From an uncultured Candidatus Saccharibacteria bacterium (GTDB taxonomy: Bacteria > Patescibacteriota > Minisyncoccia > 2-02-FULL-40-12 > GWA2-44-9), in NCBI GenBank assembly GCA_964436165.1, contig CAYTBY010000001.1, positions 73,452 to 137,451 of the forward strand: a stretch of DNA of 64,000 nt. The letters are read 5' to 3'. Position numbers and translations under genes: made by a program. Below the pieces are notes generated by a model that searched no databases, was not told the DNA's origin, and worked only from the letters and a program-made list of their open reading frames with translations. Positions 1 through 14,394 of the stretch are shown here, piece after piece. Each line of letters starts with the position of its first letter. Position 1 is the stretch's first letter.

Positions 1-2373
1 TTGGGCCTTAGCGTGGGGTGTATAAACCATGATGGAAGCTACTTGTATGACGAAGGTCATACAACAAATCCCAAATCCCAAATCCCAAATTCCAAACAAA
101 TTCCAAATTCCAATGATCCCTCCTTCGCTGAAGCTTCCACCGTCGCTAAAGCTATGGCGGACAAGTCGGCGGGCAGGCAAAATTCAAAAGAAGAAAAATT
201 GGATAAAGAAAGAGATTTAACCGGAAGTTTCCATGTTGTTCATGAATTTTTGCGGCCGGTGACGAAGAAAGAGGCTTATGGCGCCGATATTACCTATGGT
301 ACTAATAATGAATATGGATTTGATTATTTGCGCGACAATATGGCCTACGATTCAAATCAGATGGCCCAAAGAACCGAGCACTCATTTGCAATCGTTGACG
401 AAGTCGATTCTATTTTAATTGACGAAGCCAGAACCCCGCTTATTATTTCCGCTCCCGACATTGATTCCGGAAAACTATACGAGACATTTTCCAGGGTTGT
501 CCCGAGTTTAAAAGAGAATGATGACTACAACGTTGATGAAAAACTCAAAGCTGTTTCTATAACTGAAAGCGGAATTGAAAAAGTTGAGAAAATGCTCGGT
601 CTTTCAAATATTTATGATGAAGGCGGAGTCCGTTATGTCCATCATTTGGAGCAAGCTCTAAAAGCCCAAATACTTTTTAGGCGGGATAAGGATTACGTGG
701 TCAAAGAGGGTGAAATTATTATTGTTGATGATTTCACGGGACGTTTAATGCCTGGCCGGCGCTGGTCGGAAGGTCTTCATCAGGCGATTGAGGCCAAAGA
801 GGGTGTCAATGTTCAGAAAGAGTCCCGGACTTTAGCCACTATTACTTTCCAGAATTATTTTCGTTTGTATAAAAAACTTGCCGGTATGACCGGAACGGCT
901 CGAACTTCAGCCGAGGAATTACACAAAGTATACAATATTGAGGTTATTTCCGTGCCGACAAATAAGCCGGCGATAAGAGGTGACTTAGCCGACAGGATTT
1001 ATAAAACAGAAATGGGCAAGTTCAAAGCAGTTGCCCGTGAAATTAAAGAACGAAACGAAAAGGGTCAGCCGGTTCTTATCGGGACGGTTTCTATTGAAAA
1101 AAATGAACTTCTCTCGATGCTTCTTCAGCGCGAAGGCGTTCAGCATAATATTTTAAATGCTAAAAATCATGAGAAAGAAGCAGAAATTATTGCTCAGGCG
1201 GGGCGCTTAGGTGCGGTGACGGTGGCGACCAACATGGCTGGCCGCGGCGTTGACATAATTCTTGGCGGCAACCCTGTTGAAGTCAAACTTCAACAGGGGG
1301 TGCGGGAGGCGGGGGGACTGCATGTAATTGGCACGGAGCGGCATGAAGCCCGCAGAATAGACGATCAGCTTCGCGGCCGTTCCGGCCGACAGGGCGATCC
1401 AGGTTCTTCTCAGTTTTTTGTTTCGACCGAAGATGATGTTATCCGCGTTTTTGGCGGTGACCGTCTGACGAATCTAATGAATACCCTTGGGATAGGGGAA
1501 GACGATGTTATAGAAAATCGTTTTGTTTCTCGGGCGATTGAGCAGGCCCAGTCAAGGATTGAAGGCCATAATTTTGATATTCGCAAATACGTTCTTGAGT
1601 ATGATGATGTGATGAATAAACACCGTGATGCCATCTATCGTTTGCGCAAAGAAATTTTGTTTTCTGATAATATTAAAGAAACTGTTTTGGGTTATGTTCT
1701 TGATGTCGTTAATCAAATAGTTATTCTCCATGCCCCTGAAGGAGAAACGGCCGAGTGGAATTTAGAAGAAATAGCCGAATCAATCAAAGCCCTTGTTGGT
1801 AGTCCGTCATCCGCCCCTTCTGGCGGAGGCGGAGGTTCTTTGCATTCTGAACTTCTGGAAGTTTCAAGCGATAAGAATTTTCATAAATTGTCAGAATATA
1901 TTCTTGATTATGTGACCAAGACCTATGAGGCTAAAGAGGGGGAAGTTGGAATTGAGATGATGAGACAACTTGAAAAGTTTGTTCTCTTGAGAACAATAGA
2001 CGAACTTTGGATGGATCATATTGAAGCGATGGAGTCGTTGCGTGAGTCGGTTCGTTTACGGGCTTACGGCCAGCGTGATCCGTTGATAGAATATAAAATC
2101 GAGGGTCAAAAAATGTTTGAGAATCTGCAAAATACGATCAAAGGCCAAGTGGCTAACCTCATTTTCAAAGTTTCGTTTATCCAACAACCGTGGGAAGTTA
2201 AGATGGAAGAGCGGAGACCTGATATTGTGGATAACGAATTAAGAAGTAAGAATAATGGTTTGGATGCTCAAAACCAAAATTCAAAATCCCAAATTCGTAA
2301 TTCAGCAGTTGGCCGCAACGACCCTTGTCCCTGTGGTAGCGGGAAGAAGTATAAGAAGTGTCATGGGGTCTAG
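1..2373 (+). CDS. secA: Preprotein translocase ATPase SecA, 5'-partial (ORF enters from window edge)
   Basis: Motifs KEAYGADITYGTNNEYGFDYLRDNMA, MAGRGVDIILGGN and RGRSGRQGDPGSS. C-terminal zinc finger NDPCPCGSGKKYKKCHG. Stop at 2371-2373. Confidence 0.9.
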   Translation: MGLSVGCINHDGSYLYDEGHTTNPKSQIPNSKQIPNSNDPSFAEASTVAKAMADKSAGRQNSKEEKLDKERDLTGSFHVVHEFLRPVTKKEAYGADITYGTNNEYGFDYLRDNMAYDSNQMAQRTEHSFAIVDEVDSILIDEARTPLIISAPDIDSGKLYETFSRVVPSLKENDDYNVDEKLKAVSITESGIEKVEKMLGLSNIYDEGGVRYVHHLEQALKAQILFRRDKDYVVKEGEIIIVDDFTGRLMPGRRWSEGLHQAIEAKEGVNVQKESRTLATITFQNYFRLYKKLAGMTGTARTSAEELHKVYNIEVISVPTNKPAIRGDLADRIYKTEMGKFKAVAREIKERNEKGQPVLIGTVSIEKNELLSMLLQREGVQHNILNAKNHEKEAEIIAQAGRLGAVTVATNMAGRGVDIILGGNPVEVKLQQGVREAGGLHVIGTERHEARRIDDQLRGRSGRQGDPGSSQFFVSTEDDVIRVFGGDRLTNLMNTLGIGEDDVIENRFVSRAIEQAQSRIEGHNFDIRKYVLEYDDVMNKHRDAIYRLRKEILFSDNIKETVLGYVLDVVNQIVILHAPEGETAEWNLEEIAESIKALVGSPSSAPSGGGGGSLHSELLEVSSDKNFHKLSEYILDYVTKTYEAKEGEVGIEMMRQLEKFVLLRTIDELWMDHIEAMESLRESVRLRAYGQRDPLIEYKIEGQKMFENLQNTIKGQVANLIFKVSFIQQPWEVKMEERRPDIVDNELRSKNNGLDAQNQNSKSQIRNSAVGRNDPCPCGSGKKYKKCHGV
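61..115 (+). repeat. Tandem heptamer repeat (CAAATCC/CAAATTC x about 7) inside secA coding sequence, encoding NPKSQIPNSKQIPNS
   Basis: Direct reading: caaatcccaaatcccaaatcccaaattccaaacaaattccaaattcc. A related caaaatcccaaattc recurs near the secA 3' end at about 2263-2300. Confidence 0.6.
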
Positions 2374-2439
2374 CGGATTTGACCCATGGCTACTAATATT
2401 TTACAATCCCTCTTAGTTTTATTGAAAATTATAAGGGGT

Positions 2440-4572
2440 ATGACGATGGAATTTAGTGCGTGGATAGCCGTTGGTTTAGTAGCTATTTTCGCTGTTTTTG
2501 TAAATAAAGATTCTCATCCTATGCCTAAAACTAAAAAAGTAGAAGTTATTGATGACATTCATGGAATAAAAGTCTCCGATCCTTATCGATGGCTCGAAGA
2601 AAATACTTCTCCTGAAGTGCAAGCTTGGGTTGACGAACAAAATGTCCATACCCGCTCACTCATTGACAAGATTAAATCGCGTGATGCGATCAAAGTGCGC
2701 ATGCGTGAACTTTTCAATCTAGATACGGTTGCAGTCCCTTATCCAAAGAATGGTCATTATTTTTTCGTCGAGCGTAAAGGCGGTCAGGATCTTGGTGTAC
2801 TTTATGTCCAAGACGGATTACTGGCTTCGCCACGTGTTCTCATAGATCAAAACACTCTTTCACCGGATAAAAAGACAGTCCTTTCAGGATGGACACCTTC
2901 GGAAGATGGCAAACTTTTAGCATACGGACTTTCCAAGACTGCTAATGATCGCAATAGTATTCGGATTCTGGACGTATCTTCAGGTAAAGATTTGTCTGAT
3001 GAAATTCCGGAAACTGGATATCCGAGTTTTGGAGCTTGGTCGTATGACGGTACCGGATTCTGGTATGTCCGTAGAGATCCAAATGCTCCCGAAAATGGCG
3101 AAGAGAAGTTCTATAAACGGATTTTCTATCATAGGCTAGGTGATGATCCCAAAAATGATGTTATTGTTTTTGGTGACGGCCGTGAAAAAACCGACTATCT
3201 TGGAGCTCAGGCTTCAAAAGACGGTCGGTGGTTGCTCGTTAGTGCCTATGTTACTACCGGAGAAAAACCAAGAAACGAACTTTACTTAAAAGATTTGCAA
3301 GATATTCAAGGTGGATTCATAATCGTTGTTGAAGGGAAAGATGCTATTTTTGGAGCAACATTTCATCGCGGTCTTCTGTATATCCTTACTAATTATAAAG
3401 CCCCGAATTGGACTATCAGGTCTGTTTCGCTTGAAAATGTTGGTGGAGGCATGGTCCAATGGAATACGGTTATTCCGGAAAATGACAATGCGGTTATTGA
3501 AACTTTCCTTACAGTTAAAAATCGTCTTTTTGTGCAGACACTCGAAAATGTTCATTCGGTTCTGGGGGAATATAGGCTCGACGGTTCTGTATTACAGGAA
3601 ATTCCACTTCCGTCTCTGGGTACGCTTGGTGGTATAACCGGCGAAGACGAAGGAGAGGAAATCTTTTTTGGTTTTACTTCATTCGTGGTTCCGCACAATG
3701 TCTATCGTCGGGATCTTAGTAATGGGGCAGTGAGTCTTTTCAAGAAAGCTGAAGGCGGGATTCAAGAGTCAGATTTTCAAGTAGAACAGAGATGGTATCA
3801 GTCAAAAGACGGGACCAAAGTCCCGATGTTCATAGTTTCAAAGAAGGGATTACAGCGAGATGGTAAAAATCCAACCATGCTGTACGGTTATGGAGGATTT
3901 AACATTTCTATTACGCCAAGCTTTACTAAAACAACCGTTTCTTTCCTTGAAGCGGGTGGGGTATACGTAGAGGCTAATCTTCGTGGCGGATCAGAGTTCG
4001 GCGAAAAGTGGCACGAAGGCGGTATGCGTAAGAATAAACAGAATGTATTTGACGATTTTATTGTAGCGGCAGAATTTCTTATCAGTGAAAAATATACTTC
4101 GAAAAATAAACTTGCTATTTTTGGCTGGTCAAACGGCGGACTTCTTGCTGGAGCTTGCCTCACCCAACGGCCGGATCTATACAAAGCCGTAGTGATCGGT
4201 AATCCTGTCCTTGATATGCTTCGCTATCATTTATTTGATGGCGGGCGTCTTTGGATTCCAGATTATGGATCCGCAGAAGAAGCGGATATGGCGCCTTACC
4301 TATTAAGCTATAGTCCATACCACAATGTTCGAAAGGGGACTAAATATCCATCAACCCTAATTCTTACTTCGGATAGTGATGACCGGGTTCATCCTGGACA
4401 GGCGTATAAAACAGTGGCCAGGCTTCAAGAGGCAAATATTTCCAAAAACCCGATTCTATTGCGGGTTGAAACAAAAGCTGGACATGGCGGTGCGGCGGCT
4501 ATTTCTGCTACCATTGAACAGTACGCCGATATCTGGAGTTTTGTATTCTGGCAGTTAGGGGTTAAAAACTAA
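2440..4572 (+). CDS. Prolyl oligopeptidase (S9A serine peptidase) with N-terminal membrane anchor
   Basis: Catalytic-region motifs GWSNGGLL (Ser), SDSDDRVHP (Asp) and AGHGG (His). N-terminal hydrophobic helix. RBS taagggg before ATG 2440. An in-frame ATG at 2386 is an alternative start. Confidence 0.8.
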   Translation: MTMEFSAWIAVGLVAIFAVFVNKDSHPMPKTKKVEVIDDIHGIKVSDPYRWLEENTSPEVQAWVDEQNVHTRSLIDKIKSRDAIKVRMRELFNLDTVAVPYPKNGHYFFVERKGGQDLGVLYVQDGLLASPRVLIDQNTLSPDKKTVLSGWTPSEDGKLLAYGLSKTANDRNSIRILDVSSGKDLSDEIPETGYPSFGAWSYDGTGFWYVRRDPNAPENGEEKFYKRIFYHRLGDDPKNDVIVFGDGREKTDYLGAQASKDGRWLLVSAYVTTGEKPRNELYLKDLQDIQGGFIIVVEGKDAIFGATFHRGLLYILTNYKAPNWTIRSVSLENVGGGMVQWNTVIPENDNAVIETFLTVKNRLFVQTLENVHSVLGEYRLDGSVLQEIPLPSLGTLGGITGEDEGEEIFFGFTSFVVPHNVYRRDLSNGAVSLFKKAEGGIQESDFQVEQRWYQSKDGTKVPMFIVSKKGLQRDGKNPTMLYGYGGFNISITPSFTKTTVSFLEAGGVYVEANLRGGSEFGEKWHEGGMRKNKQNVFDDFIVAAEFLISEKYTSKNKLAIFGWSNGGLLAGACLTQRPDLYKAVVIGNPVLDMLRYHLFDGGRLWIPDYGSAEEADMAPYLLSYSPYHNVRKGTKYPSTLILTSDSDDRVHPGQAYKTVARLQEANISKNPILLRVETKAGHGGAAAISATIEQYADIWSFVFWQLGVKN

Positions 4573-4600
4573 GCAGTCATATTTGACTGCTTTTATTTTT
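4573..4600 (+). terminator. Rho-independent terminator after the peptidase gene
   Basis: gcagtcatatttgactgc hairpin followed by ttttattttt. Confidence 0.55.
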
Positions 4601-4639
4601 AACTGAAATAGTAATATAATAAACCCCATATCCTATTCG

Positions 4640-4869
4640 GCTAGGAGTTATGATATATCATAACAACTTGCGCCGCATGGGTTTAATAACTTTTCATGAA
4701 AACTACTAAAGTTAAAAATAAAAAAGAGAACAAAACCGATTGGAAATATTTTGATGATTGTCTGATCTGCAAAGCTATGGAAAAAGCTGATAAGCGGGGT
4801 AGAAATTTGTCTATGGAAGAATTAAAATCAGCATTTAAAGAACAGAATAAGAAAAATAATAAAACTTAA
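4640..4869 (+). repeat. Copy 1 of a duplicated module of about 230 bp (half-palindrome operator plus 57-aa CxxC gene); paralogous to 9380-9618
   Basis: About 85% nucleotide identity to 9380-9600, including gctaggagttatgatatatcataac, atgggtttaataa and the first approximately 90 nt of the small ORF. Confidence 0.7.
4696..4869 (+). CDS. Small lysine-rich CxxC protein (57 aa), hypothetical
   Basis: ORF MKTTKVKNKKENKTDWKYFDDCLICKAM... Its stop TAA directly abuts the ATG of the next gene (translational coupling). Paralog at 9436-9618. Confidence 0.5.
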   Translation: MKTTKVKNKKENKTDWKYFDDCLICKAMEKADKRGRNLSMEELKSAFKEQNKKNNKT

Positions 4870-6342
4870 ATGAAGAAGGGTACAATTGGAAAAGTTGTAG
4901 ATTACTATTTTTCAAATCCACAATATTTGAGGGAGGTTGAGGGGGCGATGATAGAATTTTTTGAGGTCGAATCAGCTCAAGCGCTAAGAAGAAGGAGTAT
5001 GGATGAAAAAGAACTTGGATTTTTTACCGAATGGTTTATCTTTGATTATCAATGGAGAGATGGGGGAACTACGTTGGAAAGTTTTTGTGATAACAATCCG
5101 CTTGGTTTTGAGAAGGCAGATTTACAAATATATAAAGATTTACAGGCAAATCTCTATGGCATGTGGGAAGTGGTCTCTGTCGAGCCTGGCAAAAGTCTCG
5201 AATTGGAAAATCTACAGACCGGTAAAAAGTTCAACGTCAAAGAATATAAAGCCACTTTCCAATTACGTCCCAAAGACATTTTTTATAATCGCCTTGCCTT
5301 CATAGATAGCCGTTGGGAAATCGTAGGAGCTGATTCGTTCAATCTTGGCATTAAATTCAATAAATCCGTTAAGGAAATATGGCGAAAAGATAGATCTTTG
5401 ATTACCCCAAAAGATGCTGTTAAGATGTGGGATAGTCATTCTGATAATGGTGTTGAGTCGCATGGTGATTTGCGATCAATAGAAGAAGTGGAAGAAAAAT
5501 TTTCCAGGATGCTGAAGAAATTTAAGATTGATACTTTTGTTACAACGGGGCTAGTTAAAAAATGGATATACAATCTTAAACGTAATGCTACGGCACATAC
5601 AGAGATTATCGATCGTCTAACCGGATTGGTAAATTTTAACGATCTCGGTGAATCGCTAGACATAGAAGATCTCATCGGTTCATATAATGATTTTTATAAT
5701 TTATGTCTGCAAAAAGGTTTAAAAAATAAATCGCCCGGCCAGCTTGTAGCCGAAAGGGATAATTCTTATGAACCTGATTTTGAAATGAACATTACGCCTA
5801 TTGGCCACGGCGAAGATTTGGATAAATTATATGAGAAGGCTTTTAACGAAATGAATTCGGGAGATTATTATAACGCGCTCAAGAGTTTCGATAGGTGTTT
5901 TAAAGAATTTTTAAAAAGGCGTACCACAGTATTTTATATTTATCGTTTATATGCAAATAAGGCAGTATCTCATTTTGCATGTGGACAAAGAGCTGAAGGC
6001 AAAAAGATGGTCGATATGGCCTTAGAATTAAATCCGAATTATGATTTTGGTCAAAAACTCTTGCGTCAATATAAGGATGGTGAGTTCGATTTTGATATTA
6101 AGAAAATATTAGGGATAAAATTGTCTACAAATTATCTTAAAAAAGACTCTTCAGAACTTTATTATGACTTCCTTAAAACATTGGGTATTAATTTTGCCAC
6201 GCCAACTCTAACTACTTCGGAGATTAGGATATACAATCCAAAAGGCGAGCTTGTGAAAGCTGGCCGGAATGATCCTTGTCCGTGCAAAGCCAAGCATCCC
6301 GATGGCCGTTTCAAAAAGTTTAAACATTGTCACGGCCGGTAA
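4870..6342 (+). CDS. SEC-C motif domain protein (490 aa) with TPR-like C-terminal region; function unknown
   Basis: C-terminal NDPCPCKAKHPDGRFKKFKHCHGR matches the SecA C-terminal zinc-binding (SEC-C) motif seen in this window's secA. The rest is unassignable. Confidence 0.55.
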   Translation: MKKGTIGKVVDYYFSNPQYLREVEGAMIEFFEVESAQALRRRSMDEKELGFFTEWFIFDYQWRDGGTTLESFCDNNPLGFEKADLQIYKDLQANLYGMWEVVSVEPGKSLELENLQTGKKFNVKEYKATFQLRPKDIFYNRLAFIDSRWEIVGADSFNLGIKFNKSVKEIWRKDRSLITPKDAVKMWDSHSDNGVESHGDLRSIEEVEEKFSRMLKKFKIDTFVTTGLVKKWIYNLKRNATAHTEIIDRLTGLVNFNDLGESLDIEDLIGSYNDFYNLCLQKGLKNKSPGQLVAERDNSYEPDFEMNITPIGHGEDLDKLYEKAFNEMNSGDYYNALKSFDRCFKEFLKRRTTVFYIYRLYANKAVSHFACGQRAEGKKMVDMALELNPNYDFGQKLLRQYKDGEFDFDIKKILGIKLSTNYLKKDSSELYYDFLKTLGINFATPTLTTSEIRIYNPKGELVKAGRNDPCPCKAKHPDGRFKKFKHCHGR

Positions 6343-6457
6343 AGTTGCTGCACGATTCACTAAGCGGTTATTGGGCCACAAGATAGTTGGCATCCTTTGA
6401 CACAATATAAACTAAGTGATAAGATAGTATATATCTACAAAAGACGCATAGACTTTT

Positions 6458-7588
6458 ATGAATATCGAAATCGGTAAGAATATAATACAAAAAGGAGGAT
6501 TTAAGGCCTTTATCCCTAATACCTTCCCCCCTAGGGGCATTTTTAACCTACCCCAAGATATTTTGATAAAAGCTGCCGAAGCCGATCGTTTAGTCGGTAA
6601 ATTAGATGGGGTAACTCATACACTCCCTGATGTCGATTTTTTTCTCTCGATGTTTGTGGCTAAAGATGCTGAATCTTCTTCCCAAATCGAAGGCACTAAG
6701 GCAACTATCATAGATGCCATGGAGATAAAAGCAGGCGTTGCTATAAAAGATACTGATGCCGATGATATTTTGTATTATATTAAGGCACTAAACTATGGAC
6801 TCAAAAGATTAGAAAAATTTCCTTTATCACTTCGTCTAATTCGGGAAATTCACGCACAACTTATGACTGGAGCTCGGGCAACACATTTTTCAGATCCGGG
6901 AGAGTTTCGTAAATCTCAAAATTGGATTGGCGGCACAAGACCTGATAATGCTTCTTTTGTTCCGCCGACCGTAGAAGAAATGCAATGTGCTCTCAATGAT
7001 CTTGAGAAGTTTTTGCATAATGAAAAATCTACTTTGCCTATTATTCATGTTGCTTTGACCCATGCTCAGTTTGAAACTATACACCCTTTTCTTGATGGAA
7101 ATGGAAGGACGGGCCGATTAATAATTACCATGCTCTTGTGCCACAGAAATATGCTCGAAAGACCAGTACTTTTTCTATCTTCGTATTTCAGGAAATATCA
7201 AAAAGTTTATTATCAAAAACTCCTAGGCTATCATTATGGTGAAGTTGGAGCTTGGCTGAACTTTTTTCTTGATGGCGTGATTGAGACAGCTAACAATGGC
7301 ATTTTAGTTTCAAAACAGATAACTAAACTTCGAGAAGATGATATGGCAAAAATTCTGGCGCTTGCCAAAAGAGAATCGGAAAGCGGTGTTTTGGTGTTGC
7401 AAAAATTATATGCTCAGCCAATTGTTTCAACTCGAAATATTATGAAATGGACTGGCTTCAGTCGGGCTGGCGCCCAAAAACTCGTTGATAGATTTATTAA
7501 TCTTGGTATTCTTGAGCTGAAGGATGAGAAAGAAACATATGACCGCACTTATATTTATGGGAAGTATGTTCAGATCTTTACTCAATAG
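6458..7588 (+). CDS. Fic/DOC family protein (class II, N-terminal inhibitory motif present)
   Basis: Fic core motif HPFLDGNGRTGRL. Putative inhibitory motif SSQIEG, matching (S/T)xxxE(G/N), upstream of the core. C-terminal wHTH-like region. Confidence 0.85.
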   Translation: MNIEIGKNIIQKGGFKAFIPNTFPPRGIFNLPQDILIKAAEADRLVGKLDGVTHTLPDVDFFLSMFVAKDAESSSQIEGTKATIIDAMEIKAGVAIKDTDADDILYYIKALNYGLKRLEKFPLSLRLIREIHAQLMTGARATHFSDPGEFRKSQNWIGGTRPDNASFVPPTVEEMQCALNDLEKFLHNEKSTLPIIHVALTHAQFETIHPFLDGNGRTGRLIITMLLCHRNMLERPVLFLSSYFRKYQKVYYQKLLGYHYGEVGAWLNFFLDGVIETANNGILVSKQITKLREDDMAKILALAKRESESGVLVLQKLYAQPIVSTRNIMKWTGFSRAGAQKLVDRFINLGILELKDEKETYDRTYIYGKYVQIFTQ

Positions 7589-7772
7589 AATCGTGAAAAC
7601 AAAAACTAAAAAAGAAATATATTATAAGTGCAGGAAATGTGGCGATGAGATTTATTGGAATACCCGCAAGAAAATGATCCACTGTAAATGTGGCGCTATT
7701 GCTGTAGACGGATGCGAAGATTATATAAGGCTGATTGGCGAAGAAAATGATTATAAGTCAATCAAAAAATAG
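7524..7772 (+). CDS. Small zinc-ribbon protein (CxxC...CxC), hypothetical; start uncertain and overlaps the fic 3' end
   Basis: ORF with YYKCRKCGDEIYW...HCKCGAIAVDGCEDY. No clear RBS; the start may be an internal ATG at about 7557 or 7566. Confidence 0.3.
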   Translation: MRKKHMTALIFMGSMFRSLLNRIVKTKTKKEIYYKCRKCGDEIYWNTRKKMIHCKCGAIAVDGCEDYIRLIGEENDYKSIKK

Positions 7773-7816
7773 TTTCCTAATCGTCTAATCATATCAAAAA
7801 GTGCTATGAGAAATAA
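7773..7816 (+). repeat. Left copy of an imperfect direct repeat of about 45 bp bounding the TA/GNAT cassette
   Basis: tttcctaatcgtctaa is identical at 7773-7788 and 8944-8959. The following approximately 28 nt are similar (…aagtgctatgagaaataa vs …aagtgtcatgggaaataa). Confidence 0.6.
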
Positions 7817-7834
7817 AAAAAATCGCAGAGCGAC

Positions 7835-7873
7835 TTGCATTTTTAAATTGATGTACGTTATAATGTACGTATG
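7835..7873 (+). promoter_or_regulatory. Sigma70-like promoter with direct-repeat operator driving a leaderless phd-relE transcript
   Basis: TTGCAT, then 18 nt, then TATAAT (7859-7864). ATGTACGT repeats flank the -10 element. The ATG at 7871 lies about 7 nt downstream of the -10 with no SD. Confidence 0.5.
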
Positions 7874-8251
7874 AATATAAAGACAACCATACCTATCTCA
7901 GAAGCTAGGAAAAATATATTTAAAATCTCAGAAAAGATTCAAAAACCTGGTGTTTATTTTACTTTCACTGAAAAAGGCAAACCCAAGGGTGTTATTATGT
8001 CAGCCGAAGAGTTTGAATCTTGGACAGAAACAATGGAGGTTATGCAGCAATTTCCCAACCTTGACAAGGATATTGCCGAAGCTGATAGAGCAATCCGGAC
8101 CGGACAATATAAGAGATATCCCACCCTGGATGATCTTAAGAAGGACTGGGGTTTTAAAGTTGCAGAAAAAGTAAATAAAAAAGATGCCATTTCAATTGTA
8201 TCTAAAACCAAAAGTAAGAAAAAAACTTCAAGATATTCGGGAAAAAGATAG
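7871..8251 (+). CDS. Type II antitoxin, Phd/YefM family
   Basis: N-terminus ISEARKNIFKISEKIQKPGVYFTFTEKGKPKGVIMSAEEFESWTETMEV resembles Phd/YefM. The 3' end overlaps the toxin start. Confidence 0.65.
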   Translation: MNIKTTIPISEARKNIFKISEKIQKPGVYFTFTEKGKPKGVIMSAEEFESWTETMEVMQQFPNLDKDIAEADRAIRTGQYKRYPTLDDLKKDWGFKVAEKVNKKDAISIVSKTKSKKKTSRYSGKR

Positions 8252-8435
8252 GAAACGCATTGTCGGTGCTTTTGATTCTATAGTAAATGATCCTTTCTTT
8301 GGGAAGCAACTTCATGGCGAACGAGTCGGTCAATATTCGGTTCGGGTTTGGCCCCATCGAATTATTTATCGTGTTGATAAAAATCGATTACTTGTCATTA
8401 TTATCGAATTTGGTCATCGTCAGGGAATTTATTAA
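8184..8435 (+). CDS. Type II toxin, RelE/ParE family
   Basis: MPFQLYLKPKVRKKLQDIREKDRKRI...YSVRVWPHRIIYRVDKNRLLVIIIEFGHRQ; characteristic RelE/ParE pattern. Confidence 0.8.
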   Translation: MPFQLYLKPKVRKKLQDIREKDRKRIVGAFDSIVNDPFFGKQLHGERVGQYSVRVWPHRIIYRVDKNRLLVIIIEFGHRQGIY

Positions 8436-8438
8436 AAA

Positions 8439-8939
8439 ATGACAGAAAAATTATCTTCAAAATCCGTTGAGAAGAAAGAAAATTTACCTAAAGCCGAAAC
8501 TATAACCGGACAAGAACTTTTTGATTTAATCTATAAAGGAGAATCAGAGCCTCAAGATGATCGCTTTTTAAACTCTAAGGAAGGCGGAGTTTTTAAATAT
8601 TTTAATATCTAAAATCTTATAAATATACATAAAAGTCGTGATAACTTTTTCTATCCTATAATTAAAATTGATAATAAGATCGTTGCCATCTGCGAACTCG
8701 AAAAGAGCCCCTATGAAGAAAATTTATATTGGATAACTGGTGTTTCCGTAGATTCTACTTATCGAGGCAAGCGTTATGCGTCTATGGTTTTAGAAGAGAC
8801 ATTTAGATTTGCCGAAGAAAAAGGCGTTGCATTATTGGGTTCGCGGTATTCTGAGGAAGGATCTGCGAAGTTAAAATCAGTTTGTGATAGATTGGCAGAT
8901 AAATACGGAGTAGAATTTAGGGAGAGTGAGCATCAATAA
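8439..8939 (+). pseudogene. GNAT-family N-acetyltransferase interrupted by an in-frame TAA (8611-8613)
   Basis: A 58-codon ORF (MTEKLSSKSVEKKENL...) and a 108-codon startless ORF (…ITGVSVDSTYRGKRYASMVLEETFRFAEEKG…) lie in the same frame, separated by a single TAA. The GNAT CoA-binding motif is in the second part. Confidence 0.5.
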
Positions 8940-8943
8940 AATC

Positions 8944-8986
8944 TTTCCTAATCGTCTAAAATTTTAAGAAGTGTCATGGGAAATAA
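8944..8986 (+). repeat. Right copy of the direct repeat bounding the TA/GNAT cassette; includes the start of the 8976 gene
   Basis: See 7773-7816. The left copy carries a 22-codon remnant ORF (atgagaaataaa...) resembling the 5' end of this gene (atgggaaataat...). Confidence 0.6.
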
Positions 8987-9263
8987 TATGGAAAATTTAG
9001 AGCAAAAAATCCAAAAAATTGAGGAAAGAAATCAGCGAGTCGAAGTTGATAAAGCATGGGAAACAAGCTGGACAAGGCGAGTTTTGTTGGCCATATTTAC
9101 ATATATTTCAATCGGAGTGTATATGTGGGCAATTGAGATAACGCGCTCGTGGTTGAATGCAGTAGTACCCGCTGTGGCATTTATGCTATCAACGCTCACA
9201 ATGCCGCTTTTCAAAAAATTATGGCTGAAAAACAAGGAAAAATCCCTGCGTGACAGTATTTAA
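8976..9263 (+). CDS. Small membrane protein (2 TM), hypothetical
   Basis: ORF with hydrophobic segments LLAIFTYISIGVYMWAI and VVPAVAFMLSTL. Its 5' end appears to have been duplicated at 7806. Confidence 0.45.
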   Translation: MGNNMENLEQKIQKIEERNQRVEVDKAWETSWTRRVLLAIFTYISIGVYMWAIEITRSWLNAVVPAVAFMLSTLTMPLFKKLWLKNKEKSLRDSI

Positions 9264-9379
9264 AGTGTAAAAATGTGGTCTTGCTTGTCCTGAGGTATTC
9301 GAAGGATAAATAGCTCGGAACATCAGCAGTTTTCCGGGTCGAGAATATAGAGTAAAATCATTTTTTTGAAAATAATAAC

Positions 9380-9411
9380 GCTAGGAGTTATGATATATCA
9401 TAACTCCTAGC
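9380..9411. promoter_or_regulatory. Perfect 32-bp palindrome (putative operator) upstream of the small CxxC gene, copy 2
   Basis: gctaggagttatgatatatcataactcctagc equals its own reverse complement. Contains a tatgatat -10-like core. Only the left half is conserved in copy 1 (4640-4664). Confidence 0.55.
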
Positions 9412-9435
9412 ACTGTATGGGTTTAATAATTTTTT

Positions 9436-9618
9436 ATGAAAACCACTAAAGTTAAAAATAAAAAAGAGAACAAAACCGATTGGGAATATTTTGATGATTG
9501 CGGAATCTGCCAGGCCATGAAAGTAGCCGATAAACAAGGAAGAAGTCTATCGGGAAAAGAATTAGCAGAGGCATTTAAGAAGCAGAACAAAAAGAATAAT
9601 GATGAAAAATATAATTAG
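9436..9618 (+). CDS. Small lysine-rich CxxC protein (60 aa), paralog of 4696-4869
   Basis: MKTTKVKNKKENKTDWEYFDDCGICQAM...; N-terminus near-identical to copy 1. Confidence 0.5.
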   Translation: MKTTKVKNKKENKTDWEYFDDCGICQAMKVADKQGRSLSGKELAEAFKKQNKKNNDEKYN

Positions 9619-9655
9619 TGAGGGGAAATATAAACGGTTTGAGCGAAAAAATTAA

Positions 9656-9874
9656 ATGTCTAAACCGATAATCTCTAGCGGGATGAGACCAATAATTTGG
9701 GGATTGATATTTTTCGGGATAGGGGCGGTGGGCTGGGTATTCTCGGTTGTTCTGGCGGTTATTACTCTCGGGGCACTTAAATTTTTAACTTATATTTTTG
9801 GGTATTTATTTGCCTTGAGTTTGCCGGTGGCCGGTATTTGGGAACTCATCCGGTGGATTAAGAATAAAAAGTAA
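9656..9874 (+). CDS. Small 2-TM membrane protein, hypothetical
   Basis: 72-aa ORF, almost entirely hydrophobic (IIWGLIFFGIGAVGWVFSVVLAVITLGALKFL...). Confidence 0.4.
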   Translation: MSKPIISSGMRPIIWGLIFFGIGAVGWVFSVVLAVITLGALKFLTYIFGYLFALSLPVAGIWELIRWIKNKK

Positions 9875-13279: not shown

Positions 13280-13321
13280 GACCTCTAATTTGCCATATTG
13301 GTTTTAAAAAATTTAAAAAGT

Positions 13322-13355
13322 AATCCACGGGACAGAAACCGTGGATTTTTATTTT
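13322..13355 (+). terminator. Rho-independent terminator
   Basis: aatccacgggacagaaaccgtggatt hairpin followed by tttatttt. Confidence 0.55.
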
Positions 13356-13377: not shown

Positions 13378-14394
13378 ATGAAGAAAAAGAGAGAGATACT
13401 AGTGGCGATTAGCGGCGGTTTTGACCCAATTCATATTGGGCATGTTCGGTTAATACAGGAAGCTGGGAAATTAGGAAATAGACTGGTAGTAATTTTGAAT
13501 AATGATAATTGGCTCAAGAAAAAGAAGACCCATATTTTTATGCATCAAAAAGAGAGGAAGGAGATAATCGAATCAATTGAGGGAGTCGATGAGGTTATAA
13601 TCTCAAGCCATCCTAAAAACCCTAAAGATATGAGCGTCTCGAAGGAAATTTTAAAAATTAAACCCGATATTTTTGCTAATGGTGGAGATAGAAAGGAAGA
13701 AAAAGATATTTTGGAAGGAGAGGCCTGTCGTAAGGTCGGATGCAAGTTGGTTTTTAATGTTGGCCAGGGTGGAAAAATTCAGTCCAGTTCTTGGCTCTTA
13801 ACCAAATATGTCAACAAACTAAAGCCGGTTAGAAAATTAAATATTAATAAGATACTGAACGAACTGAGGATTGTATTTAGGAAATCCAAAATAAAATTTC
13901 CTGAAAAATTACGAATAAAAACATCGAAAATAATCCTTAGATTAATGAATCGTCGTCGGGGATTCGGTCTCTTTATAATTATCGGCTGGCAGGATAAGTG
14001 GCGTAAGTATACCGACTTGCCCGATTCAAGGCAGGATATTTATGTCAGGCACCATCAGAATATTTTAAAACACTACCACAGTCACAAACACGACATTGAA
14101 ACAACCGTTAATTTTGACGGAGCAATTCTTGTCGATAAGAGGGGCAACATTGTTCATTCCGGGATTATTATCGAGGGCTTAAGGCCGGGAGTAATTGCCG
14201 ATAAAATACGTCCTGGCCACTTTAAAGATCTTTCGGAGCAGTTTGGTTTTGGCGAAAAAGTCCACTCTCGGCACTTATCGGCCATAACTTGTTCCTATAT
14301 TTTTAAAGGAACAACGGTCATGACCGTTTCCGAAGAAAATGATTCTTTTCATGTCTTTGAAGGCGGGAGGATAATTTATAAAACTCACAATTAA
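13378..14394 (+). CDS. Fusion protein: N-terminal HIGH-motif cytidylyl/adenylyltransferase domain plus C-terminal diadenylate cyclase (DAC)-like domain
   Basis: N-terminus ILVAISGGFDPIHIGHVRLIQEAGKLGNRLVVILNND (HxGH nucleotidyltransferase). C-terminus GFGLFIIIG…FDGAILVDKRGNIVHSG…HSRHLSAITCS…TVMTVSEENDSFHVFEGGRI aligns with the DAC DGA and RHR(AA)…VSEETG motifs, with the second Arg replaced. Confidence 0.5.
   Translation: MKKKREILVAISGGFDPIHIGHVRLIQEAGKLGNRLVVILNNDNWLKKKKTHIFMHQKERKEIIESIEGVDEVIISSHPKNPKDMSVSKEILKIKPDIFANGGDRKEEKDILEGEACRKVGCKLVFNVGQGGKIQSSSWLLTKYVNKLKPVRKLNINKILNELRIVFRKSKIKFPEKLRIKTSKIILRLMNRRRGFGLFIIIGWQDKWRKYTDLPDSRQDIYVRHHQNILKHYHSHKHDIETTVNFDGAILVDKRGNIVHSGIIIEGLRPGVIADKIRPGHFKDLSEQFGFGEKVHSRHLSAITCSYIFKGTTVMTVSEENDSFHVFEGGRIIYKTHN

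Follow-up and report, generated by a model that had tools for sequence, protein, structure and literature searches.

Direct repeats around a toxin-antitoxin module and a candidate secA-end cassette array in a Candidatus Saccharibacteria genome

Why does a toxin-antitoxin (TA) module of a Candidatus Saccharibacteria bacterium lie between two copies of the same short sequence, and where does that sequence come from? The copies, R1 (7773–7816) and R2 (8944–8986), are found in a 64,000-nucleotide chromosomal stretch of contig CAYTBY010000001.1, hereafter the window. It belongs to a low-GC bacterium (41.7% GC), nearly all of its genes are on the same strand, and secA, the repeats, the secA-end relics and the genes from Fic to the membrane protein described below are on the plus strand. 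Between R1 and R2 lie a Phd/YefM-family antitoxin gene, a gene for a ParE/RelE-superfamily toxin, and a broken gene for a GNAT acetyltransferase. A preliminary description of this DNA read the block as a single cassette inserted immediately upstream of a small membrane-protein gene. The TA pair and the GNAT pseudogene are in themselves ordinary. The interest of the locus lies in the array of cassettes at the end of secA that is revealed by the repeat. We lean towards the view that R1 and R2 are members of a family of junction elements of about 45 nt, and that they belong to a variable array produced by repeated insertion into the SEC-C codons of secA.

Composition of the repeat

Exact matches to the 16-mer TTTCCTAATCGTCTAA are found at 7773–7788 and 8944–8959, and nowhere else in the window. 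A gapped similarity between 7761–7816 and 8932–8986 extends further, with 78.6% identity over 56 nt (E = 3e-5 in a self-BLAST of 13 kb against 64 kb). The local score of R1 against R2 is 53, compared with a maximum of 31 among 1987 random pairs of 141-mers. Based on the BLAST value and this score, the repeat is real and not a chance similarity. R1 begins right after the TAG of the open reading frame (ORF) for a DUF7695 zinc-ribbon protein, and R2 begins 4 nt past the GNAT stop codon. The two copies at 7773 and 8944, the first directly after the zinc-ribbon stop, are therefore as the preliminary description had reported them.

The right half of each copy resembles the end of secA. In R2, the relic at 8960–8986 closes with ..TTT AAG AAG TGT CAT GGG AAA TAA and reads in frame as KKCHGK-stop. 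In R1, the decayed relic at 7796–7816 (AAA AAG TGC TAT GAG AAA TAA) reads as KKCYEK-stop. Both correspond to the end of the SEC-C zinc motif. The functional secA 3' end of the window, at 2317–2373, encodes an intact SEC-C motif (NDPCPCGSGKKYKKCHGV followed by the stop codon; Pfam SEC-C match at residues 772–789), and the C-terminus of the protein is ...GKKYKKCHGV-stop. We propose this end as the primary attachment or target sequence. The 15 nt AAGAAGTGTCATGGG are identical in the secA end (2353–2367) and in R2 (8966–8980), at 15 of 15 positions. A hidden Markov model (HMM) of genuine secA 3' ends matches R2 (E = 0.002) as well as many inter-gene relics in related loci. In SecA loci of other phyla, a regex motif scan found that nearly all carry solely their own secA end. 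Judged from these alignments, the duplicated sequence is a conserved 16-mer followed by a displaced secA 3' end of the last 7–9 codons (Y/F-K-K-C-H-G-x-stop). An attempt to read the 16-mer itself as decayed CPCGSG codons was not successful; it shares its initial TTTCC and its length with one relic type, but just 4 of the middle 13 nt agree.

On weak evidence, the spacer between R1 and the TA module (7817–7832) may be what is left of the 5' end of a cytidylyltransferase-like gene such as the one in L103 (related loci are designated here by L numbers). In the alignment of R1 with L103, the local score was reached by 6 of 2000 shuffles and is dominated by an A-run.

According to the preliminary description, the second copy contains the real 5' end of the membrane-protein gene, and the first copy retains a 22-codon remnant of it. 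Neither statement was confirmed. The membrane protein family comprises 1652 homologues with a modal length of 91 aa and the start MENLEQK, which corresponds to position 8988, and the named sources are all Patescibacteria. The ATG at 8976 sits within TGT CAT GGG AAA TAA; its counterpart in L005 is not in frame with the gene, and L003 has a stop codon there. From the homologue lengths and this upstream comparison, the gene occupies 8988–9263, and the repeat ends before it begins. As for the remnant in R1, the similarity between the two copies stops after ATGrGAAATAA. In L005 and L006, secA is located directly upstream of the membrane gene, with a secA-end relic between them. Annotators should be aware that short ORFs beginning at the ATG in the CATGG of such relics are artefacts, that the membrane gene starts at 8988, and that the GNAT gene is a pseudogene.

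The proximity of relics and start codons could suggest that the element is a selected expression signal, either a translation-initiation region or a regulator site, rather than a scar of recombination. In several copies a start codon lies within the relic or no more than 25 nt past it, with an ATG or GTG inside it in L103 and L130. The membrane gene of the window starts 1 nt past its relic, and AAGAAG is purine-rich, like a weak ribosome-binding site. We consider this explanation very improbable. R1 is followed by a promoter and not by a gene, the homology of the relics covers the SEC-C codons together with secA downstream spacers, and the element has neither a conserved RNA structure nor an Rfam match.

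Junctions and arrays downstream of secA

The composite element, consisting of the 16-mer or an 18-mer form of it, TTTCCTAATCGTCTAA(CA), and a secA-end relic, was found at 11 junctions including R1 and R2, using a repeat profile and a metagenome pattern scan. These elements span at least 8 genomes including that of the window, with at least 7 other metagenomic genomes. The metagenome scan gave 22 matches, of which 18 are by chance and 4 are true (L102, L103, L111, L112); the same kind of scan in viral sequences gave chance matches only. In all 11 junctions, the element lies 0–7 nt past the stop codon of the upstream gene, and the copies have no related sequence in common upstream of the 16-mer. 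Three elements follow the zinc-ribbon gene: R1, the copy in L094–96 (after an 85-nt 5' fragment with 87% identity), and the copy in L103 (after a 33-nt 3' relic). Three follow GNAT genes, namely R2 and the copies in L122–125 and L130–132. Two follow different Fic genes, in L088–93 and L126. The remaining elements are located after a gene with a weak DUF4325 match in L097, a 109-aa gene in L112, and a 258-aa gene in L130. It had been foreseen that the repeat might prove to be a recurrent intergenic motif, which would have counted as a refutation. To the letter this has come true, as the element recurs at 11 junctions, but all of these sites are cassette junctions downstream of secA. The idea of recombination at the repeat is consequently reframed rather than refuted.

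Two side observations concern these junctions. In L094, the ParE stop codon is followed at once by the ATG with which the zinc-ribbon fragment begins. In L003 (8025–8925) and L005 (1289–2031), relics of the form AAGAAGTGT[CT]A[CT]GG are present at further junctions, beside NUDIX, HIT, glyoxalase and ASCH genes, and in some of them the ATG of CATGG is the start codon of the next gene.

At least four types of secA end are found attached to the 16-mer, all at the same codon position: Y-KKCHG, F-KKCHG, KKCGLVNSPEHQQFSGSKK-stop (KKCGLVNSPEHQ..), and KKCLPVRSF-stop. In L088, the sequence becomes similar to a genuine secA end, namely the one in L094, precisely where the 16-mer ends (the protein listed as a 498-aa protein in L094 is SecA). 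The type of end tracks the upstream gene. The Y-type sequence CATATCAA.. is present in all three zinc-ribbon-linked copies, and the copies after GNAT in the window and in L122 have the F-type sequence AA(A)TT(T/C).. (the KKF-KKCHGK type). Moreover, R1 is 93% identical to the L103 copy after the zinc-ribbon relic, compared with 80% to R2. Each repeat therefore travels with its upstream gene, and the pair R1 and R2 did not arise by a fresh duplication of the target.

This result bears directly on the original explanation of the locus, in which one TA-GNAT cassette was inserted upstream of the membrane gene and about 45 bp were duplicated, either as a target-site duplication or as attL and attR. 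Direct repeats do flank a 1.17-kb block that has its own promoter. In addition, L094–96 carry a zinc-ribbon fragment, a single repeat whose left part is R1-like, and then a 19-nt remnant of codons 2–8 of the membrane gene, so that a single copy is placed between the remnants of the two flanking genes. Nevertheless, the linkage of the Y- and F-types to different upstream genes and the closer identity of R1 to L103 than to R2 largely refute this explanation, which we regard as improbable. The repeat does not contain the coding 5' end of the membrane gene, its right half being a secA-end relic, and nine further junctions show this element at the edge of unrelated cargo. A repeat of 45–57 bp with 79% identity and an exact 16-bp core is also unlike the target duplication of a transposon. 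A transposon or insertion sequence was rejected as a candidate; the repeat of about 45–57 nt is imperfect, there are no terminal inverted repeats around 7817–8943, and the block contains no transposase. What stands of the original cassette proposal is that the TA module, with or without GNAT, behaves as movable cargo whose boundaries are marked by the repeats; the duplication of the target does not stand.

The preliminary description had also named an empty site in relatives as a check. The arrangement in L094–96, judged from its sequence, is what either an unoccupied site or a deletion between R1 and R2 would leave. L122 contains secA, the TA module, GNAT and the repeat without the 5.4-kb region corresponding to 2374–7832 of the window, representing an alternative occupancy. 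A single repeat between remnants of the zinc-ribbon and membrane genes was thus found, but neither L094–96 nor L122 is a close strain with otherwise identical flanks.

The elements are located downstream of secA wherever the contig reaches far enough. In the window, secA (1–2373) is followed by genes for an S9 prolyl oligopeptidase (2386–4572), a 57-aa ORF (4696–4869), a 490-aa protein with a SEC-C motif at its C-terminal end (p490, 4870–6342), Fic, and the zinc-ribbon protein. R1, the TA-GNAT block, R2, the membrane gene, an older secA end and a 60-aa gene come after these, and then a 72-aa gene and onward. Arrays directly 3' of secA are present in six other loci. In L094 the order is secA, TA, zinc-ribbon remnant, repeat, membrane-gene remnant and purD. 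In L122, whose SecA is 78% identical to that of the window, secA is followed by TA, GNAT, the repeat, a homologue of the 72-aa gene and GH57; in L126, by a 131-aa gene, Fic, the repeat, TA, a homologue of the 72-aa gene and GH57. L097 contains secA, two bare relics, TA, three genes, a repeat, a gene, a relic, a second TA and a cytidylyltransferase-like gene. In L112, secA precedes a module resembling a diversity-generating retroelement (DGR) with its reverse transcriptase, two genes, the repeat, a gene and a cytidylyltransferase-like gene. In L130, secA (ending KKCHGA-stop) is followed by GNAT, the 16-mer with an old secA end and spacer, the 258-aa gene, a second 16-mer with an old end, and a cytidylyltransferase-like gene (CTP_transf). 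From its order, L130 looks like two stacked insertions. The backbone from secA to CTP_transf is also present in L112, L097, L088 and L130. The cargo of these arrays includes TA pairs, GNAT, Fic, zinc-ribbon and small membrane-protein genes, and others.

We note two further features of L112. The DGR-like module (1797–4191) directly 3' of secA consists of a reverse transcriptase gene (RVT_1), an oppositely oriented bAvd-like gene and a DUF5674 gene, and the secA end of this locus is altered to KKCHLNRKD-stop.

An older secA end is found on the far side of the membrane gene. The segment 9264–9435 comprises a displaced secA 3' end (KKCGL..INSSEHQQFSGSRI-stop), a downstream spacer, a perfect 16+16-nt palindrome (9380–9411), and the decayed remains of a 5' half of SEC-C codons. 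This segment can be aligned with the real secA ends of L126, L122 and L094 together with their non-coding downstream regions, and also with copies that have been displaced in L130 and L088; it carries a 23-nt insertion. This homology to the real secA ends of relatives places 2353–9263 inside a former secA 3' end. A nested direct repeat of 225 nt accompanies it. Its first copy, 4640–4860, is 80% identical to 9380–9600 in the self-BLAST and contains a partial palindrome and a decayed 5' half of SEC-C codons. The repeat duplicates part of the old secA-downstream region and a small gene; each copy has the palindrome and one of two paralogous CxxC genes of about 58–60 aa (4696–4869 and 9436–9618). 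A possibly still older secA-end-like relic, AAAAAATTTAAAAAGTAATCCACGGGAC, is located at 13306–13333 (weak nhmmer match, E = 17) and may mark the distal boundary of the variable array. A terminator-like hairpin occurs with this relic, just upstream of the cytidylyltransferase-like gene at 13378. The GC content is 33–38% over 4400–9800 and 40–44% in the flanking core genes, which is consistent with acquired DNA.

It could be argued that the relics were never part of secA, and that they are leftovers of independent accessory genes with SEC-C tails that decayed in place. SEC-C tails are indeed present on array proteins other than SecA, such as p490 and a 107-aa protein of L005 ending in KKCHGH-stop. 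However, only 3' ends survive, always in the orientation of secA and directly after intact genes. The similarity of the relics to real secA ends covers about 100 nt of the non-coding downstream spacer as well, and the arrays begin at secA in six loci. This explanation is accordingly quite improbable. As a separate observation, p490 has no Pfam domain and ends in a long-variant SEC-C motif (NDPCPCKAKHPDGRFKKFKHCHGR-stop) like the SecA tail of L005 and L006 (65% over 29 aa). This tail may have been acquired from a secA-end relic.

Formation of the array and comparison with known systems

We propose that DNA inserts repeatedly into the SEC-C codons of secA. The incoming DNA would supply a new secA end, leaving the essential gene intact, and the old end would be displaced downstream, where it would decay. 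In many cases the right end of the cargo would carry the 16-mer, and the 16-mer together with the relic would form the cassette-side recombination sequence. As the repeats share sequence with the live secA end, later homologous or site-specific exchange could lead to gain, loss and shuffling of modules. The window would then be a stack of such insertion events. The enzyme involved would act in trans.

Several observations weigh against this proposal. No integrase, transposase or other recombinase is present in or beside any array, as judged from a scan of the window and from the Pfam lists of the related loci, and no tyrosine- or serine-recombinase signature is present in the 64-kb window. Since no recombinase was found, the insertion mechanism is one that we infer. 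The left half of the element, the 16-mer, has no significant similarity to SEC-C codons, and the secA-end HMM aligns with the right half only. RNAalifold on 8 copies gave 0 pairs, indicating no conserved secondary structure, and no match to a known structured RNA was found in Rfam. The junctions do not all lie at one precise site; the membrane gene occurs without the 16-mer, and the TA module has different left flanks in different loci. A stretch of about 15 nt in R1 may come from another gene, and on the contigs that were available some relics are found unsplit or a long way from secA. The evidence base consists of a dozen short metagenomic contigs. In the set of species-representative genomes, the best secA identity is 66%, and the comparison included no closed genome of a close relative. 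A SecA-anchored scan of that set gave 0 of 80 loci with the membrane gene or any cargo and is useful only as a negative control for the relics. An exact-protein look-up of the membrane protein retrieved the same arrangement only, with no strain-level empty site and no presence/absence polymorphism within the population. One of these assemblies, L001, is independent of the window and has the same arrangement.

Some of these points would be explained if no dedicated system existed. Foreign DNA could enter by natural transformation and be joined by homology-facilitated illegitimate recombination anchored on secA, followed by homologous recombination between short relics, with the 16-mer preserved only because all copies descend from a single old junction. 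Because no recombinase was found and several junctions are imprecise, this remains a serious alternative. An essential and conserved gene such as secA is a good anchor, the junctions are not all at one nucleotide, and R1 seems to carry a few codons of the following gene of L103, as imprecise joins predict. On the other hand, the 16-mer follows the stop codons of at least six different cargo genes at a distance of 0–7 nt, and it adjoins at least four secA-end types at the same codon position. Such regularity is hard to obtain from random joins or from one ancestral junction. The 16-mer is also exactly conserved while its flanks diverge. We therefore judge transformation alone to be unlikely and retain repeated insertion into the SEC-C codons as our preferred reading.

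The architecture resembles both integron arrays and islands at gene 3' ends, yet fails the tests that define them, namely the integrase and the attC structure. As in the superintegrons of Vibrio, small, mostly single-gene modules form a one-directional array from a fixed site, and each module is followed by a short repeat that travels with the upstream ORF as attC does. TA cassettes with their own promoters and acetyltransferase cassettes are typical cargo in both. In contrast to integrons, there is no IntI tyrosine integrase in the 64-kb window or among the array genes of the related loci, and the 8 folded copies contain no imperfect inverted repeats of the attC type. The attachment site would be the coding 3' end of secA, which is also the source of part of each repeat. 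We know of no report of an integron in Patescibacteria.

Tandem islands at the 3' ends of tRNA, tmRNA and protein-coding genes, which are inserted by tyrosine integrases, are similar in a different way. There, too, a replacement 3' end keeps the target intact, displaced 3' ends form direct repeats between insertions, and older insertions are further from the gene. The att-type duplication expected of such islands is seen here: the direct repeats derive from the secA 3' end, and secA itself is intact with its SEC-C motif. The differences are the size of the modules (0.3–5 kb), the absence of integrase or excisionase remnants in them, and the extra conserved 16-mer on the cargo side.

A third comparison is with the Xer-dependent dif modules (pdif) of Acinetobacter plasmids. 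These are small integrase-less modules, often TA pairs, that are bounded by short sites and served by a host recombinase in trans. However, pdif sites are 28 bp long (11-6-11) and alternate in orientation, whereas the repeats described here are all direct. Their arm symmetry, inspected by eye, is weak and not conserved, with 7/9 matches in one copy and 4–6/9 in the others. Both an integron attC and a dif-like site were rejected as candidates for the element, given the lack of a fold in the 8 copies, the weak symmetry and the exclusively direct orientation.

A bolder version of the proposal, possible though doubtful, is that the arrays represent an undescribed cassette system without an integrase of its own and with a trans-acting enzyme. 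In such a system the secA SEC-C end would be the primary attachment site, and the 16-mer with its secA-end mimic would be the cassette site. It would be an analogue of the integron that builds TA-stabilised arrays in ultra-small genomes. If true, the system might also seed SEC-C tails onto new proteins. TA cassettes stabilise the arrays of superintegrons, and by analogy the TA pair may stabilise the array described here. Full-text literature searches turned up neither secA as a target of insertion nor cassette arrays in Patescibacteria. Members of the Candidate Phyla Radiation (CPR; Patescibacteria) have tiny genomes with few recognisable mobile elements, and for this reason the gain and exchange of accessory genes in this group are poorly understood. 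A hotspot that took up small modules again and again in the last codons of an essential gene, with the gene restored each time, would be a compact route for gene flow. The 16-mer followed by KKCHG-stop relics could serve as a search signature for such arrays in metagenomes.

The TA module, the GNAT pseudogene and neighbouring genes

The antitoxin gene (7871–8251) encodes a Phd/YefM-family protein of 126 aa (PF02604, 52.4 bits with a cut-off of 29.8; TIGR01552, 28.2 bits with a cut-off of 20.8), and its homologues are 85–92% identical and also 126 aa long. The toxin gene (8184–8435) encodes 83 aa and overlaps the antitoxin gene by 68 nt, an overlap that is kept in L122. The toxin matches PF05016 with 38.6 bits (cut-off 23), and the YoeB and RelE models are below their cut-offs; the assignment is thus at the level of the ParE/RelE superfamily. 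The earlier identification of a Phd/RelE pair is borne out by the PF02604 and PF05016 matches. As in other type II pairs of Phd/YefM with ParE/RelE, the antitoxin comes first, the toxin is small and overlapping, and a palindrome covers the putative −10 of the pair's own promoter. The length of the antitoxin, the 68-nt overlap and the frequent presence of GNAT as a third gene (in the window and L122–125) are unlike the usual Phd/YefM systems.

The nucleotide homology of the TA module between the window and L088, L094 and L097 is 80–88%. It begins at 7833/7834, just before the −35, and ends at 8438–8451, at or just past the ParE stop codon. By this comparison, the TA pair is a self-contained unit from the −35 through the toxin stop codon. 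The module has six different left and right neighbours and therefore moves independently of GNAT. In L122–125, TA and GNAT are retained as a three-gene unit.

The putative promoter and operator are located at 7833–7870, with a −35 TTGCAT (7835–7840), a −10 TATAAT (7859–7864) and a near-palindrome ATGTACGTTATAATGTACGT (7851–7870). The block CTTGCA...TATAAT...ATGAAT is near-invariant in five loci, with no conservation upstream of it, and the promoter is deduced from this conservation. A generic promoter scan did not flag it, because just 3 of the 6 positions of TTGCAT match and the −35 and −10 are 18 nt apart. The preliminary description had proposed direct repeats around the −10 as the operator. 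The sequence ATGTACGT does occur twice, at 7851–7858 and 7863–7870, flanking TATAAT within a conserved block, but it is better read as part of a palindrome. In L097, the 20 nt that cover the −10 form a perfect palindrome, ATGTACGTTATAACGTACAT. An inverted-repeat operator suits a dimeric protein such as Phd. With the perfect palindrome in L097, such an operator for Phd is more likely than direct repeats, and Phd would autoregulate the TA pair through it. The Phd ATG at 7871 follows the −10 by 6 nt and lacks a Shine-Dalgarno sequence, and Phd is probably translated from a leaderless mRNA.

The GNAT gene (8439–8939; PF00583, 36 bits) is a single frame cut by one in-frame TAA at 8610–8612, in line with the broken GNAT gene originally described. 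Intact homologues of 151–167 aa carry Q, G, H, E or N at this column, and the closest carry Q. A CAA-to-TAA nonsense mutation is therefore the simplest reading. Having no intact ORF, the gene is, as far as its sequence tells, a pseudogene unless the stop is read through. Reassignment of the stop codon was rejected; L001 has this TAA too, and Gln, the residue at this point in the homologues, is one transition away.

Among the neighbouring genes, the Fic/DOC-family gene (6458–7588; Pfam Fic_N and Fic) is cargo upstream of R1. The DUF7695 zinc-ribbon gene (7594–7772; Pfam PF24749, 43 bits) is linked to R1. Its start is ambiguous and could be the GTG at 7594, 6 nt past the Fic stop, or an ATG at 7524 or 7539 within Fic.

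Finally, the interval between the TA promoter and the Phd start codon contains two different inserts resembling miniature inverted-repeat transposable elements in two related loci. One is at 2638–2757 of L122 and the other at 2970–3091 of L126, with terminal inverted repeats CCCGTTAGAGAC... and CCCGCACTTAATTAGG..., respectively. Their point of insertion is exactly the same, and a duplicated ATGAAT flanks each of them.

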